Source: an uncultured Clostridia bacterium (GTDB lineage Bacteria > Bacillota > Clostridia > TANB77 > CAG-508). From it: a stretch of DNA of 32,000 nt. How positions within the stretch are numbered: the stretch's first letter is position 1; every line of letters begins with the position of its first letter. A program made the translations under genes and the position numbers. The DNA is taken from positions 7,606 to 39,605 of the forward strand of contig CANPVP010000001.1 of assembly GCA_947581825.1 (NCBI GenBank). Reading direction: 5' to 3'. The notes beneath the pieces are model-generated. The model was not told where the DNA came from, made no database searches, and saw nothing but the letters and a program-made list of their open reading frames with translations. This document shows positions 18,276 through 32,000 of the stretch, piece by piece.

Positions 18276-18312
18276 TGAAACTTTTTTTGTGTGTAAATAT
18301 ATCTTATAAGTA
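18276..18312 (+). promoter_or_regulatory. ECF-type promoter upstream of the ECF sigma gene (putative autoregulation)
   Basis: TGAAACTTTTTT-N14-TCTTATAAGTA, ~45 nt upstream of the ATG at 18357. It has the same sequence blocks and spacing as 28580-28616. Confidence 0.55.
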
Positions 18313-18356
18313 TATCAAGTTTGCAAATAAGATATCATGAGAGGAGAAAAATAGGA

Positions 18357-18899
18357 ATGGATAACCTAGTAGAAAAAGCGCAACATGGGGATAAAGAAGC
18401 TTTTACTGAACTTATACTATTATTAAAATCAGAGTTATATAAAATTGCGAAAACAAGGATAAACAATGATGAAGATGTATACGATGTAATACAAGAAACG
18501 ATGATAATTGCATTTAATTCAATAAAAAAATTAAAGCAAATCGAAAAGTTTAAACCATGGATAATAAAGATTTTAATAAATGTAAGTAATAATTTATATA
18601 AAAAAACAAATAAAAGCAATGTTATATCATTAGATAAAATTGAAGGTTATAGTTCCTTAGAGTACTCTGATTTTGATGAGGTTGAAACAATATTGGATTT
18701 CAATTTTATTTTAAATAATTTTAAATATGAAGATAGAATAATCATTATTTTATTCTATGTAGAAAAATTTACTGATAAAGAAATTGGACAAATATTAAAT
18801 TTAAAAGAAAACACTGTCAAGACAAAAAGGACAAGAGTAAAGGAAAAAATTAAAGAAATGATTAAAGGAGGTCAAGAATTTTATGGATCAATTAGATAA
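18357..18899 (+). CDS. ECF-type (group 4) sigma-70 family sigma factor
   Basis: 180 aa from the ATG preceded by GAGGAG. It has region 2 (DVYDVIQETMIIAF, FKPWIIKILIN) and region 4 (FTDKEIGQILNLKENTVKTKRTRVKEKI). The track ORF starts at an upstream TTG. Confidence 0.85.
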   Translation: MDNLVEKAQHGDKEAFTELILLLKSELYKIAKTRINNDEDVYDVIQETMIIAFNSIKKLKQIEKFKPWIIKILINVSNNLYKKTNKSNVISLDKIEGYSSLEYSDFDEVETILDFNFILNNFKYEDRIIIILFYVEKFTDKEIGQILNLKENTVKTKRTRVKEKIKEMIKGGQEFYGSIR

Positions 18900-19995
18900 A
18901 AAATTATATAATGATTTAAATACACAGATAGAAATTCCAGAAAAACTTGATACAATTATAAAAAATGGATTAAATAAAAAGAAATCACCTTATTCATTTC
19001 TTAAATTAATTGCATCAGTTTGTATTATTACATTTATAACTTCAGGAGTAGTTTTAGCAGGGGGAAAAGCAGTTGAAAAAATATGGAAAGAACCACAAAG
19101 AGTAACGATGGATTACAAAGAAAATAATAACAATGATATGACTAAAGAAAATATAATGTCTGAAGAAGAAGCAAGAAAAAAAGGAAAAGAAATATTGGAA
19201 AAATTCGGATATAAAAACGATAAAATAAAAACAATAAAACTTGACAAGAGTCCTGATGATTTTGATGTAGCTTGGTGTATTGAAAGTGAAGATAATATTT
19301 ATATAGATTTTGATGCTAAGGGAGAAGAGTTTTTTTGTATATCAGATGATAATGTATTATATAAGGATATAGAAAAATATAGAACAACAGAAAAAGAAGC
19401 AGAAAAAACTGCTAAGGAACTAGCTAAGAAGTATGGTTATGATACAGAACAGTATAGTTATGCAGAAGTAAGTTCAAACTTAAATTCAGAAAGTGATTCA
19501 TATATTTGGAATGTTACTTTTTATAAGGAATATGATGGAATAAAAAATCCTTATGAAAGTATTCAGGTTACATTTGTTCCAAAAATAAATCAAATATGTG
19601 GATTGAGTGTAGTAAATAAAAAATTTGAAAATAATCCTGTAGAAATTACAAAAGAACAAGCTAAAGAAATTGCTTTAAAAGAAGAACAGAAAATTAATGT
19701 AAAATATGAAGTAAAAAATATAGAAATAAATTTAAGGATAGAATCAATGAATGGATGTGCTTACCTTAGAACAAATGATTATGAACAATTGCATAAGCAA
19801 ACTCCTGCAGACTATCCAAATGAAAAATGGGTATTCTATCGAACAGATTCACGAATTAGAAAGATTTGGTTAGTAACAATAGTATATGATATACCTAACA
19901 AATTTGCGGAAGATTATAATGTGAACGATGAAAGAGTTAGTTATTTTGTAGATGCAACAACAGGAGAAGTAATAGGTGGAGGTAGTATCTTTTAG
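18883..19995 (+). CDS. Putative anti-sigma factor: N-terminal cytoplasmic segment, one TM helix, three PepSY-like extracytoplasmic modules
   Basis: Overlaps the sigma gene stop by 17 nt. TM helix is LKLIASVCIITFITSGVVLAG. Three repeats begin EEEARKKGKEILEKFGY, TEKEAEKTAKELAKKYGY and TKEQAKEIALKEE. Confidence 0.65.
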   Translation: MDQLDKKLYNDLNTQIEIPEKLDTIIKNGLNKKKSPYSFLKLIASVCIITFITSGVVLAGGKAVEKIWKEPQRVTMDYKENNNNDMTKENIMSEEEARKKGKEILEKFGYKNDKIKTIKLDKSPDDFDVAWCIESEDNIYIDFDAKGEEFFCISDDNVLYKDIEKYRTTEKEAEKTAKELAKKYGYDTEQYSYAEVSSNLNSESDSYIWNVTFYKEYDGIKNPYESIQVTFVPKINQICGLSVVNKKFENNPVEITKEQAKEIALKEEQKINVKYEVKNIEINLRIESMNGCAYLRTNDYEQLHKQTPADYPNEKWVFYRTDSRIRKIWLVTIVYDIPNKFAEDYNVNDERVSYFVDATTGEVIGGGSIF

Positions 19996-20049
19996 AAGAG
20001 TGAAGTAGTAAGAGTATACAAATTAAAAAAAATGACCTTTTTGAAATAA

Positions 20050-29488: not shown

Positions 29489-29519
29489 ATACAAACAAAC
29501 CAATTAATAGGAGAATTAA

Positions 29520-30740
29520 ATGAATATTTTTAAAATCGTATATAAAGATATAAAAAAATTTATGATGGAGAAAACAATATTATTTGTAGTATTGATGATA
29601 AGCCTAATTGTCACAGCACTAGCTTTTTGTATATTTATAGCAAATAATATGCATATGGCTAATATTATGAATGAATATAGGAATGTTTCCAATAAATATA
29701 CTATAAGCAATAAAAAGAAAATAAATAAAGAATCTGTAAATAAACTTAATAAATGGTTAGAAGAAAAAAATTATAATGATATTAAAGTAAATCTTTATTC
29801 AGATATATTATTAAGAGATGACGTAGATGTTTCTATGTTTCAAAGCGATGGAATACATTTAGATTCATCAAAAAAAGATAATAATAATGACGAGAATTTT
29901 GCAATAAGAATGCCTTACGACATAATAATAGGTATGAATAATAATGTTTCAAGCAGAGAATCCTTTATTGGCAAAACCATGGCTGAAGAAGATGTAAATA
30001 ATTATATTATGATAGATATTAATAGCGAAGAAGCTTCTAGAGATCCATTTGTATTAAATAATACCATAAAAATAAGGAATAAAGATTATATTGTAAAATC
30101 AATAGATAGAATAGATATAACACCTCAGATGATAGACCATTGTAATGTGTACAATTATAATAAAGGCACATTAGGGTATATAGAGCCAGTAGCAGTTAAA
30201 ATGTCGGATTTTATGAATAATTATGACATATATACTATGGATTTAATAGTACCAAATAGCTTAAAAAAGTCACAGAAAGAAGAAATAGGAACATTTATAC
30301 AAGAAAACTTCAAAAATGATGAGATTTCTTTGCCTCAAAGAATAGAAGATGTTAAATTATCCGATATACAAAGTGACATAATAATGTTTTCAGTTTTGGT
30401 AATATTAGCTCTAATTAATATTCTAGCATTGTTTATATATTGGATTGATAAAAATTGGAGAAAATATATAATTTATAGGATTTGTGGTGCAAACCAAAAG
30501 AATATATATAAAATTATAATTTTAGAAGCAACTGTTATTTGCATTATATCAATTATCATAGGTGTTACTATTTATTATCTAATAACTCCACTATTAGCTA
30601 AAATGTATACAACGTATATTTTAGCATTAAAAGATATATGTTTATTTCAATTAATAGTTGTAGTATTAGTTATATATATAACTAGTATAGAAGCAATAAA
30701 AATTTCAAAAATAAGCCCTAGATATATGGAAAGAAGGTAA
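29520..30740 (+). CDS. FtsX/MacB-type ABC transporter permease (1 TM + large extracytoplasmic domain + 3 TM)
   Basis: 406 aa. The C-terminal FtsX-domain pattern is KYIIYRICGANQKNIYKIIILEATVICIISIIIGV. Confidence 0.75.
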   Translation: MNIFKIVYKDIKKFMMEKTILFVVLMISLIVTALAFCIFIANNMHMANIMNEYRNVSNKYTISNKKKINKESVNKLNKWLEEKNYNDIKVNLYSDILLRDDVDVSMFQSDGIHLDSSKKDNNNDENFAIRMPYDIIIGMNNNVSSRESFIGKTMAEEDVNNYIMIDINSEEASRDPFVLNNTIKIRNKDYIVKSIDRIDITPQMIDHCNVYNYNKGTLGYIEPVAVKMSDFMNNYDIYTMDLIVPNSLKKSQKEEIGTFIQENFKNDEISLPQRIEDVKLSDIQSDIIMFSVLVILALINILALFIYWIDKNWRKYIIYRICGANQKNIYKIIILEATVICIISIIIGVTIYYLITPLLAKMYTTYILALKDICLFQLIVVVLVIYITSIEAIKISKISPRYMERR

Positions 30741-30746
30741 TACTAT

Positions 30747-31952
30747 ATGAAAAAGAATTTGAAGATTATAGGTAATTTGTTTAAACAAAATAAATTCAAA
30801 AATATAGTTATAATAATTCAAATAATAGTTTCTATATTTGTATTAACTTTCTTGTTACAAAAAATAGTAGAATATAGTGATACATCTAAATTGTTGGCAA
30901 AAATGGACTTTGATAATACAATTGTTTTTTCAGAAAGTCTACATATAAGTGAGTTATTGTCAGGACAAAATAGAAATGAAAAATACGAAAAAGTAAAAGA
31001 ATATTTAAAAGATTTGGATGGAGTTAAAAATGTATATAATACTTATAATACGTCATTCGAAAATAACAGTTTAGATTTATATACTTTCATGTATGATGAT
31101 GGTTTAATAGAAAAGAATAAATTCAATTTAGAAAAAGGAACAGGCTTTAATAAAGAAAACTTAAACAATAAAGAATTTATACCTATAATAGTAAGTTCAG
31201 GGTTAAAAGATAAATATAAATTAGGAGAAACTTATGAGTTCGGAATTTATAGCATTCCAGAAGAAAAGGATAAACTTTATAAAGTCAAAGTAGTTGGAAT
31301 TTTAAAAAATGAAGAATACATATATGTAGGGTCAAGTAAACAGACTACTCCACAAGTAGCAGATTTATTTCTAAAAACATATAAAAATGAAGAATTTGTA
31401 ATAATGCCAAACAGAATTAAAGATACAGAGAATTATAATATAAATAGTGGATTCACGGTGGAATTGAGTAATAAAGAAGATTTTGTGAGAAATTCTTATG
31501 ACAAAGTTATAGAAAAAGGGATTGGAAGATTTACTTTGAAAGATAAATATAAAGCTAATTTTTATGATGATTTAATTGCTGATTATGATAGTTATATTTT
31601 CATATTTATAATAACTTATATATTTATAATAACAAGTATAGGTGGATACAATTTACTTGCTACTTTAAATTACAAAAGATTGTTTACAATATATTATATA
31701 AATGGTATGCAATGGGAAAAAGGAATAAAATTAGTAGCTATAAGAAATTTATTACTTATTATGATTCCTACAATAATTGCAACAGTTATTTGCAACTTAT
31801 TAATTCATACCTCAGAAGTAACAGGATGTAATACTAAAGTGTGTATAATTACTATAATACTATTTTTTGTGGTATTTTTAATAACAACAATAGGAACAAT
31901 ATTTACTTTAGTAAAAACAAAACCAAGTGAAGTGTTAAAGGAGATTGATTAA
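30747..31952 (+). CDS. FtsX/MacB-type ABC transporter permease, second paralogue
   Basis: 401 aa with the same topology. FtsX-like block: KRLFTIYYINGMQWEKGIKLVAIRNLLLIMIPT. Confidence 0.7.
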   Translation: MKKNLKIIGNLFKQNKFKNIVIIIQIIVSIFVLTFLLQKIVEYSDTSKLLAKMDFDNTIVFSESLHISELLSGQNRNEKYEKVKEYLKDLDGVKNVYNTYNTSFENNSLDLYTFMYDDGLIEKNKFNLEKGTGFNKENLNNKEFIPIIVSSGLKDKYKLGETYEFGIYSIPEEKDKLYKVKVVGILKNEEYIYVGSSKQTTPQVADLFLKTYKNEEFVIMPNRIKDTENYNINSGFTVELSNKEDFVRNSYDKVIEKGIGRFTLKDKYKANFYDDLIADYDSYIFIFIITYIFIITSIGGYNLLATLNYKRLFTIYYINGMQWEKGIKLVAIRNLLLIMIPTIIATVICNLLIHTSEVTGCNTKVCIITIILFFVVFLITTIGTIFTLVKTKPSEVLKEID

Positions 31953-32000
31953 ATGGGAAGCATAAAAATTGAAAATCTAAAAAAATATTATAATGAAGGA
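31953..32000 (+). CDS. ABC transporter ATP-binding protein, 5' fragment (runs off the window)
   Basis: The ATG directly follows the permease stop. MGSIKIENLKKYYNEG is the typical N-terminus of MacB/LolD-type ATPases. Confidence 0.7.
   Translation, partial: MGSIKIENLKKYYNEG

Follow-up and report, generated by a model that had tools for sequence, protein, structure and literature searches.

A candidate regulatory cassette of an extracytoplasmic function sigma factor, a Spo0A paralogue and a secreted protein on clostridial mobile elements

A stretch of 32,000 nucleotides (nt) from an uncultured Clostridia bacterium (contig CANPVP010000001.1), referred to here as the window, has a GC content of approximately 25% and carries part of an integrated element, within which lies a set of genes that we read as a conserved regulatory cassette. 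On the plus strand, the gene for an extracytoplasmic function (ECF, group 4) sigma factor of 180 amino acids (aa; 18357..18899) is followed by that for a putative membrane anti-sigma factor (18883..19995), and the gene for a secreted protein of approximately 14 kDa (170-aa precursor; 20193..20705) converges on the latter from the minus strand. A response regulator with a receiver and a Spo0A_C domain is encoded further along on the plus strand (28706..29431), ahead of an ATP-binding cassette (ABC) operon that runs past the end of the window. Relatives were found by exact-protein look-ups in ENA and Logan assemblies, and the resulting loci are labeled L001 to L196.

The sigma factor matched the Pfam families Sigma70_r2 (37.3 bits) and r4_2 (31.1 bits) and the NCBIfam model TIGR02937 (72 bits against a cutoff of 42.9), the domain architecture of the ECF superfamily. 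Its start is likely the ATG at 18357, which has a good ribosome-binding site, and not the TTG at 18321. It carries no named ECF group, the nearest NCBIfam models (TIGR02954, SigV, SigY, and SigW) all scoring below their own cutoffs; the best of these, TIGR02954, reached 109 bits against 188.5. The start of the next gene overlaps the end of the sigma gene by 17 nt, and its product is predicted to consist of approximately 38 cytoplasmic residues, a single transmembrane segment, and an ectodomain of three PepSY-like modules. An AlphaFold (AF2) model built from 42 homologues (pLDDT 83) contains three consecutive units of one helix and four strands. Using Foldseek, the top matches of the ectodomain were 3nqy/3nqz, the FTP/PepSY propeptide of vibriolysin (probability 1.0; TM-score 0.48, normalized to the target), with further matches to 4k90, a fungal metalloprotease propeptide, and to YpmB (2gu3). 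As modeled, the modules thus show the PepSY fold of M4 propeptides and YpmB, in which a helix packs on an antiparallel sheet of four strands. The Pfam PepSY model PF03413 stayed below threshold in the window protein (18.8 bits against 24), covering residues 348 to 365 of the third module only, and a precomputed PF03413 match is present in some other members of the family. A first-pass annotation of the window, made from its letters alone, had proposed an ECF sigma factor next to a membrane protein with three PepSY-like modules; the former is borne out by Pfam and TIGR02937, and the latter holds at the level of the modeled fold. Within residues 1 to 60 of the putative anti-sigma factor no Pfam or NCBIfam match to an anti-sigma domain family, such as the class I types zf-HC2, RskA, and DUF4179, was found, and the cytoplasmic part forms two low-confidence helices in the AF2 model.

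Two promoters of ECF type would connect this pair of genes with the regulator gene. The window holds two copies of AAAAATGAAACTTTTTT and no more, at 18271 and 28575; both are on the plus strand, one immediately ahead of the sigma gene and the other immediately ahead of the regulator gene. The promoter of the sigma operon (18276..18308) is made up of TGAAAC (18276-18281), a 19-nt spacer, and ATCTTATA (18301-18308), and that of the regulator gene (28580..28613) of TGAAAC (28580-28585), a 19-nt spacer, and CTCTATATA. In each locus with the whole block, TGAAACTTTT is likewise present in exactly two copies, on the coding strand only, one upstream of the sigma gene and one upstream of the regulator gene (the window, the rearranged L002, L086, L178, and L180), while loci that hold only the regulator half (L001, L084, L085, and L174) have a single copy. 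Across loci the sigma-gene promoter takes the form TGAAAC-N18/19-(A/G)TCTTATA followed by a conserved leader, and besides the window both were found in L002, L086, L178, L180, L181, L187, and L190 (at least eight loci). The regulator-gene promoter, of the form TGAAAC-N19-CTCTATATA or CCACTATA, is kept in L084, L085, L086, L174, L178, and L180, with a TGAAAT variant ahead of the regulator in L193. The overlapping partner gene and the apparently autoregulatory promoter with an AAC-containing -35 element are features expected of an ECF sigma factor. Because the promoter pair has been kept although the sigma factors are only 77 to 81% and the regulators 57 to 73% identical in pairwise comparisons between loci, autoregulation and sigma-dependent expression of the regulator are predicted; the proposal of the first-pass annotation that the sigma factor transcribes both itself and the regulator through shared promoters is supported by this comparison. 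In L002 a regulator-type promoter is fused straight to the FtsX operon, and the unit would therefore seem to be transferable. Direct ECF control of the secreted-protein gene was rejected, as no TGAAAC motif is present upstream of it.

The regulator matched Response_reg (PF00072, 58.9 bits) and Spo0A_C (PF08769, 36.2 bits against 25), and its score with the Spo0A equivalog model TIGR02875 was 78.5 bits against a cutoff of 200, which leaves it outside that equivalog. The best PDB relatives of its receiver are Spo0A N-domains, and the protein is colinear with genuine Spo0A over the full length at 28 to 32% identity, with an interdomain linker approximately 20 aa shorter and with QTIKWTLRKFIISMI as recognition helix in place of the SRVERAIRHAIEVAW of genuine Spo0A. 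By sequence it is a true Spo0A paralogue and not the sporulation regulator of the host. Since the receiver retains the phospho-acceptor residues (the acidic pair D9/D10, D56, and K106) and no kinase is encoded near the gene, phosphorylation by host kinases is inferred. A regulator alignment, when searched against GTDB species genomes, JGI metagenomes, and IMG/VR, brought up only genuine Spo0A, at no more than approximately 30% identity, or receiver-only matches.

The likely targets of the regulator were recognized as arrays of a short repeat. TTTCCNCTTT is present six times in the window against 0.84 copies expected, a number that none of 100 shuffles reached, and all six copies fall in two arrays, at 20797-20835 (minus strand) and 29441-29460 (plus strand), each facing its downstream gene. 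The first, in output promoter 1 (20765..20835, minus strand), consists of TTCCCCT, TTCCCCT, TTCCACT, and TTCCACT with a period of 10 to 11 and abuts a sigma-A-like TTTATA-18-TATACT; its top strand reads AGTGGAA-AAA-AGTGGAA-AAA-AGGGGAA-AA-AGGGGAA, that is, 7-bp boxes with 2- to 3-bp spacers. The second, in output promoter 2 (29441..29490, plus strand), comprises two copies of TTCCTCT, then TTTTATTTAAA, and TATAAT at 29485-29490. The boxes of the window, TTCCNCT (reverse complement AGNGGAA), match the 0A box, read as TTCGACA, at five of seven positions. Spo0A dimers have been described as binding two 7-bp TGTCGAA boxes that lie 3 bp apart (PMC2731898).

Tandem box arrays precede the secreted-protein gene in every locus that holds the regulator. 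In L086 (two copies of TTACACT), L178 (four of TTCCACT), and L180 (three) they have the same layout and the same distance to the gene and directly abut a sigma-A promoter resembling TTGNAT-17-TATCTT; L193 has three copies of GATACAT with a period of 10, and L196 three of TTGTTAT with 7+3 spacing. At the position of output promoter 2, two boxes, TTGTCCAC and TTTGCAC, stand before a different ABC operon in L174, and the array before the FtsX operon of L084 and L085 is reduced to one degenerate copy. All arrays have a 7+3 or 7+4 period and face genes for exported proteins. When the recognition helices were set beside the boxes, TIKWTLRK was paired with TTCCNCT, NIKWNLRK with TTACACT, NIKCNIVR with ATACAT, and the RVERAIRH of genuine Spo0A with TTCGACA; across these pairs, the box sequence varies together with the recognition helix. 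The idea of a regulator that acts on repeat-bearing promoters, also put forward earlier, is strengthened by both observations. Activation is favored because the arrays end at the -35 region, and the regulator would most likely activate the output promoters. Two other readings of the arrays were set aside: a strong sigma-A-like TTGGCA-16-TATAAT (20911-20884) upstream of the boxes, which would make them a roadblock, is not conserved in L086, L178, or L180, such matches being at chance level in this DNA, and a weak box-like pair at 21201, before the open reading frame at 21288, was judged to be due to chance.

Further arrays were seen away from the secreted-protein gene. In L084 (7690-7930) and L085, a regulator-gene remnant consisting of the final 21 codons (NPTTKMFLTRINECIHQNMNL) is followed by two boxes and then by the genes for a 198-aa secreted HExxH metalloprotease-like protein and a 251-aa membrane-anchored protein; the unit of regulator-gene 3' end and boxes appears to serve as a promoter cassette that can be moved. 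Boxes of another type, ACACAT-TTT-GATAC(A/T), are located upstream of an operon for a 158-aa secreted protein and a VanZ-like protein in L084 (6682-6790, minus strand) and L002 (8440-8520, minus strand); they are similar to the GATACAT boxes of L193 and may go with Spo0A_C paralogues in which the acidic pair is replaced by NN.

The protein encoded behind output promoter 1 has an N-terminal signal-peptide-like segment, approximately 25 disordered residues, and a predicted beta jelly-roll (AF2 pLDDT of the core above 90) with two invariant Cys residues. No Pfam or NCBIfam family was matched, and fold matches were weak and generic (CBM6, Cry domain III, and phage receptor-binding domains). Homologues adjoin the sigma/anti-sigma pair in L086 (9148-9687), L178 (7226-7777), L180 (5047-5601), L181 (8307-8876), and L193 (10493-11071) at an identity of just 54 to 60%. 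The gene stands out by composition: in the window it has 40% GC and a third-position GC content (GC3) of 0.37 against 22 to 26% and 0.12 to 0.18 in its neighbors, and over all loci 39 to 44% GC and a GC3 of 0.32 to 0.47 against a neighboring GC3 of 0.10 to 0.19 in modules of 22 to 27% GC. Most of the excess lies in C-ending codons (C3 of 0.17 to 0.40 against 0.02 to 0.07), a tendency shared by the small acid-soluble spore protein (SASP) gene of L193, a single reference gene. The composition looks like the codon bias of a highly expressed gene, and codon usage is likely to be under selection. The earlier description of a secreted, Cys-containing protein of foreign composition is therefore retained in its first two parts, and a foreign origin was rejected because the bias is family-wide, consists mainly of C-ending codons, and is also seen in the SASP gene. 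An Ena-like spore-appendage subunit was likewise rejected, as the fold matches were weak (TM-score approximately 0.28) and the N-terminal Cys is not conserved.

The leader of the secreted-protein gene (20706-20760, minus strand, in the window) contains a nearly invariant ACATTGAAAACTTGATGAGATG in the window, L086, L178, and L180, more conserved than the coding sequence itself; a structured RNA was rejected since no consensus fold was found, and the leaders of L181 and L193 differ, sharing a GTGCA...TGCAC hairpin instead. Between the convergent anti-sigma and secreted-protein genes, a hairpin flanked by A and T runs (AAAAAGCTACTG-loop-CAGTAGCTTTT, 20045..20084) was read from the sequence, with a similar one in L086. 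It is probably a bidirectional terminator; a simple terminator scan did not list it.

To the comparison of single genes can be added that of whole loci. A compact block was identified that comprises the sigma gene (180 aa), the anti-sigma gene (367 to 379 aa), a secreted-protein gene of approximately 180 aa on the opposite strand, and a regulator 57 to 63% identical to that of the window. This four-gene block is present in a small integrative mobilizable element (IME) with a tyrosine integrase, an excisionase-like helix-turn-helix protein, DUF6076, and a Mob_Pre relaxase (118 index blocks, more than 100 contigs), in another integrative conjugative element (ICE) near sortase, SpaA, and serine recombinase genes, and in a third context, L180; no ABC transporter lies beside it in any of the three. 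The anti-sigma family, with at least 228 clusters at 90% identity, is larger than that of the regulator (17 clusters) and that of the secreted protein, which is rare (57 representatives among 1.84 billion proteins). In the window, ICE backbone genes (21288-28440, 7.7 kb) part the sensor half from the regulator half, so that the cascade, contrary to what had been supposed, is not physically self-contained there.

The gene arrangement is more varied in other relatives. L196, an ICE with the same backbone genes, has contiguous genes for a sigma factor, a zf-HC2-type anti-sigma factor, and a 28%-identical regulator, and its TTGTTAT boxes separate the sigma gene from a divergent gene for a 166-aa secreted protein. 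In the chromosomal L193 (5535-12912), near the CtsR and SASP genes, a 252-aa receiver and Spo0A_C protein is followed directly by the GATACAT repeats and the secreted-protein homologue, and three paralogous sigma/anti-sigma pairs surround this regulator and secreted pair; several sensors may converge on one regulator there. In L181 (8880-9190 and 6400-6620) the sigma gene is frameshifted, and the boxes upstream of the secreted-protein gene (TGCGAAA, GTCGAAA, TAGGAAA, and ATGGAAA), one of which is near the canonical 0A box, stand ahead of a good TTGAAT-17-TATAAT promoter; this locus may be under the control of host Spo0A. L002 bears recombination scars at 5990-6090 and 8605-8660, with a PcfJ 3'-end remnant after the anti-sigma gene and, between the scars, an insertion that encodes a VanZ-like protein and another Spo0A_C protein (234 aa, NN for the acidic pair). 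Modules have evidently been shuffled between elements, to judge from these arrangements.

The ABC operon follows the regulator in two groups only, the ICE family of the window (FtsX, FtsX-like protein, ATPase, and 126-aa protein, in this order) and L174, where a 71%-identical regulator is followed by an operon for a 139-aa secreted protein, an ATPase, and two FtsX proteins; it is absent from the IME, L178, L180, and L193 versions. As the operon is missing from most relatives, it is taken as variable, swappable cargo of the cassette and not as part of the conserved unit. The cascade of the first-pass annotation, which had included the transporter, is accordingly co-conserved for the sigma factor, anti-sigma factor, secreted protein, and regulator and not for the FtsX ABC system. 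In the window, the first gene of the operon encodes a MacB-type FtsX-family permease of 406 aa (29520..30740, plus strand; PF02687, 39.7 bits against 25.5), whose sole PDB relative is MacB, weakly (E = 0.008). The second encodes a 401-aa membrane protein of FtsX-like topology (30747..31952, plus strand) without a Pfam, NCBIfam, or PDB match; it shares a nonsignificant 23% with the first permease over the C-terminal transmembrane region, and an identical protein is encoded by L002, another element. Only the first 16 codons of the ATPase gene (MGSIKIENLKKYYNEG, 31953..32000, plus strand) lie in the window, the full gene (228 aa) being read from the source contig (L001, 11207-11893). The ATPase matched ABC_tran (114.8 bits), its best NCBIfam models LolD, TIGR03608 (lactococcin-972 type), and MacB each staying below cutoff, and its position directly after the second membrane gene marks this LolD/MacB-type protein as the cognate ATPase. 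Of two permeases and an ATPase, as initially annotated, the first permease is confirmed as FtsX and the second lacks an FtsX match. Past the end of the window, the operon ends with a gene for a 126-aa Cys-rich lipoprotein-like product.

Taken together, these comparisons point to a conserved and portable regulatory cassette with two tiers, made of known parts, for which no published description was found and whose conserved unit is the sigma factor, the anti-sigma factor, the secreted protein, and the regulator; we put the probability of this reading at roughly 65%. By analogy with its family, the membrane anti-sigma factor with its PepSY ectodomain would hold the ECF sigma factor until an extracytoplasmic cue arrives. 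The freed sigma factor would then transcribe its own operon and the regulator gene via the TGAAAC-N19-(T/C)CT(T)ATA promoters that the locus comparison brought out. The regulator would probably also have to be phosphorylated by kinases of the host, perhaps those orphan kinases that supply Spo0A, which would make the cassette an AND gate of envelope cue and host phosphorylation state. It would bind the TTCCNCT arrays just upstream of the -35 element of sigma-A-type promoters, most likely activating them, as the comparison and the binding mode of Spo0A suggest. Outputs would be the codon-biased jelly-roll gene, which is conserved, and, in the element of the window, also the cargo MacB/FtsX-type ABC operon with its Cys-rich lipoprotein-like gene.

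A number of observations weigh against this reading. Every regulatory arrow is drawn from motif position and conservation, and the role of the putative anti-sigma factor from position and topology, with no match to an anti-sigma domain. The covariation of helix and box amounts to about four independent states among related sequences. Downstream of the boxes, the sigma-A-like hexamers are weak and of a kind that is common in DNA so rich in AT (16 such matches against 22.6 expected in shuffles), and the positions of the boxes are compatible with activation and repression alike. In the paralogues of L193 and L002, NN replaces the acidic DD, so that phosphorylation is not family-wide and may no longer be required by these NN-type proteins. 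The sigma/anti-sigma loci L184, L187, and L190 lack the regulator, the secreted-protein gene, or both (L190 has a receiver-only regulator gene beside the pair); the sigma factor can therefore have other targets. L181, finally, has the secreted-protein gene without an adjacent Spo0A_C regulator, a 139-aa receiver-only gene lying approximately 3 kb upstream, and its boxes are in the opposite orientation.

The same four genes could also make up an autoinducing circuit, in which the PepSY ectodomain would have the jelly-roll protein as its ligand or be proteolyzed in response to it; the mobile element would then have a protein-based circuit for self-sensing or for signaling between cells, and the ABC operon would be mere cargo. 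The secreted-protein gene is the sole output conserved with the sensor and adjoins the anti-sigma gene across divergent modules, even in L181, where no Spo0A_C regulator is adjacent; its family is tiny and confined to the sensor context, and its codon bias points to secretion in large amounts. In the propeptides of M4 proteases, which the ectodomain matches by fold, PepSY domains act as inhibitor modules that bind proteins. Contact between the secreted protein and the ectodomain is a proposal. The two diverge about as much as the regulator does, with no specific signal of coevolution, and L184 and L187 have the sensor without the secreted protein. We consider this circuit unlikely. A wider form of it, in which the abundant secreted protein would be sensed by the ectodomain on the producing cell or on neighboring cells and the Spo0A paralogue would in addition read the host sporulation kinases, is about as doubtful; if true, the element would gauge its own density and the developmental state of its host before switching on cargo or transfer.

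Nor is it probable, to a similar degree, that the regulator turns on both an antibacterial secreted protein and an ABC transporter serving its export or immunity to it, in the manner of the Spo0A-controlled cannibalism toxins and the lactococcin-972-type systems, as the pairing of export/immunity with a secreted effector in the first-pass annotation had implied. A single box type is found at both output promoters of the window, yet most elements carry the 170- to 180-aa protein without a transporter or any other recognizable immunity gene, and the jelly-roll matches only generic carbohydrate-binding and receptor-binding domains. The second-best model of the ATPase is that of lactococcin-972-type bacteriocin ABC proteins, TIGR03608, at 221.8 bits but under its cutoff of 254.85. 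Each type of ABC operon does have its own small secreted protein, with an STRKYN motif common to the 126-aa protein (L001) and its 139-aa counterpart in L174. The 126-aa protein, the one of these two that was scanned, matched neither Lactococcin_972 nor any other bacteriocin family of Pfam or NCBIfam, and the 170-aa protein likewise matched no bacteriocin family, which leaves the locus outside the lactococcin-972-type systems. If anything, the ABC operon with its own small secreted protein is, weakly, a better candidate for a peptide and its pump than the 170-aa protein.

Very improbable is a mimic of Spo0A that would target Spo0A-controlled host genes and so let the element manipulate sporulation, a role proposed for Spo0A homologues of phages and mobile elements, the local repeats being incidental or secondary: both domains of the regulator are closest to Spo0A, Spo0A_C and SpoVG genes are enriched on mobile elements of gut Firmicutes (bioRxiv 10.1101/214213) and spo0A genes in truncated form have been noted on phages of the gut (PMC10294663), both read there as sporulation related, a SpoVG gene is also on the ICE of the window, and three canonical TGTCGAA boxes cluster at 17.1-18.1 kb, but the signature recognition helix of Spo0A is replaced, the equivalog score falls far short of its cutoff, and the private boxes, unlike TGTCGAA, are conserved beside the regulator gene and change with the helix.

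The cassette of sigma factor, anti-sigma factor, secreted protein, and regulator, which we prefer to these alternatives, is located inside an ICE. The first 11.8 kb of the window are chromosomal (1-11.8 kb; purM, a polysaccharide deacetylase, an NFACT protein, CmpB, CvpA, and two tRNAs), after which the integrated element opens with two serine recombinase genes on the minus strand at its boundary (11895-13466 and 13757-14836) and extends beyond the window end. Element genes in the window encode a Gp3-like recombination directionality factor, an SMC-like ATPase, DUF3846, a single-stranded DNA-binding protein, PcfK, and PcfJ; past the window end, the source contig encodes type IV secretion system coupling-protein fragments, a SpaA-type adhesin, and SpoVG. 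The boundary recombinase together with conjugation and DNA-processing genes identifies the element as an ICE, although no relaxase was seen in the examined stretch, and "carried as cargo," as the cascade had been described from the start, is a fair description. A megablast search of positions 18000 to 32000 against plasmid and phage collections gave no match, and Rfam reported the two tRNAs and nothing else in the window.

Three other features of the element were recorded. The Pfam match of the recombinase at 13757-14836 begins at profile position 66, most of the N-terminal resolvase domain being missing, and the protein may be truncated. In the regulatory region of the ICE, a 140-aa protein with a sigma-70 region 4 domain only is encoded at 16460-16882 (minus strand). 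Canonical Spo0A boxes (TGTCGAA) number just three in the 32-kb window, at 17106-17112, 17205-17211 (minus strand), and 18082-18088, and cluster in two intergenic regulatory regions, one just ahead of an XRE gene and the other just ahead of the sigma promoter; L002 has kept the one at 18082, and the cluster at 17.1-18.1 kb may be an input of host Spo0A to the regulatory region of the element.

Compared with known transporters, the ABC operon shares with MacB, LolCDE, and YknYZ (type VII) and with the lactococcin-972-type ABC systems an FtsX permease with a large extracytoplasmic loop, a LolD/MacB-like ATPase, and a small secreted protein encoded in the operon. It differs from these systems in its two dissimilar membrane subunits, the second without detectable FtsX homology, and in being accessory to the cascade. 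A -35 element of TGAAAC is typical of Bacillus ECF sigma factors. With the SigV-RsiV, SigW-RsiW, and SigM type of Firmicutes, which is released by regulated proteolysis, the sensor half has in common a two-domain sigma factor, an overlapping single-pass membrane partner, and an apparently autoregulatory TGAAAC promoter, whereas the anti-sigma factor of the window has no recognized anti-sigma domain, only approximately 38 cytoplasmic residues, and a triple PepSY-like ectodomain, the -10 element is (T/C)CT(T)ATA after a 19-nt gap and not CGT(A/C), and the regulon is apparently a single transcription-factor gene. Among the papers found to name PepSY, anti-sigma, and ECF together, no anti-sigma factor with a PepSY ectodomain is described, to judge by titles and abstract openings, and full-text searches of the literature turned up no account of a Spo0A paralogue under ECF control. 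The combination, which had been put forward as undescribed, appears to be new in this respect and not in that of Spo0A_C genes on gut mobile elements and phages, which had already been noted. Those reports and the window agree in a Spo0A-family DNA-binding domain on mobile elements of gut spore-formers, but they take the genes for sporulation cargo or for factors that manipulate the host and describe no ECF control, private operators, or linked secreted protein, and the regulator of the window, unlike the truncated Spo0A of phages, retains a complete receiver.

With the Spo0A of endospore-forming Firmicutes itself, the regulator shares the two-domain architecture and, putatively, operators of 7-bp direct repeats at a spacing of 3 to 4 bp. 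It differs in falling far below the equivalog cutoff, in its replaced helix and shorter linker, in having an ECF-type promoter where spo0A is under the control of sigma-H, and in being encoded on mobile elements beside its own few targets. The data suggest that a subfamily of Spo0A paralogues privately regulates exported proteins encoded by the elements, beyond any manipulation of sporulation, and that such a private regulator is subordinate to an ECF envelope sensor while itself driving the promoters of swappable cargo. If this is true, the loci would provide a natural set of orthogonal Spo0A-type regulator/operator pairs, a way, through the triple-PepSY sensor, into the envelope cue heeded by mobile elements of gut clostridia, and a handle on a rare, apparently highly expressed, and unannotated family of secreted proteins. 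The Spo0A fold thus appears to have been respecified into a private output regulator, with a new helix and a new 7-bp box in an unchanged tandem geometry.

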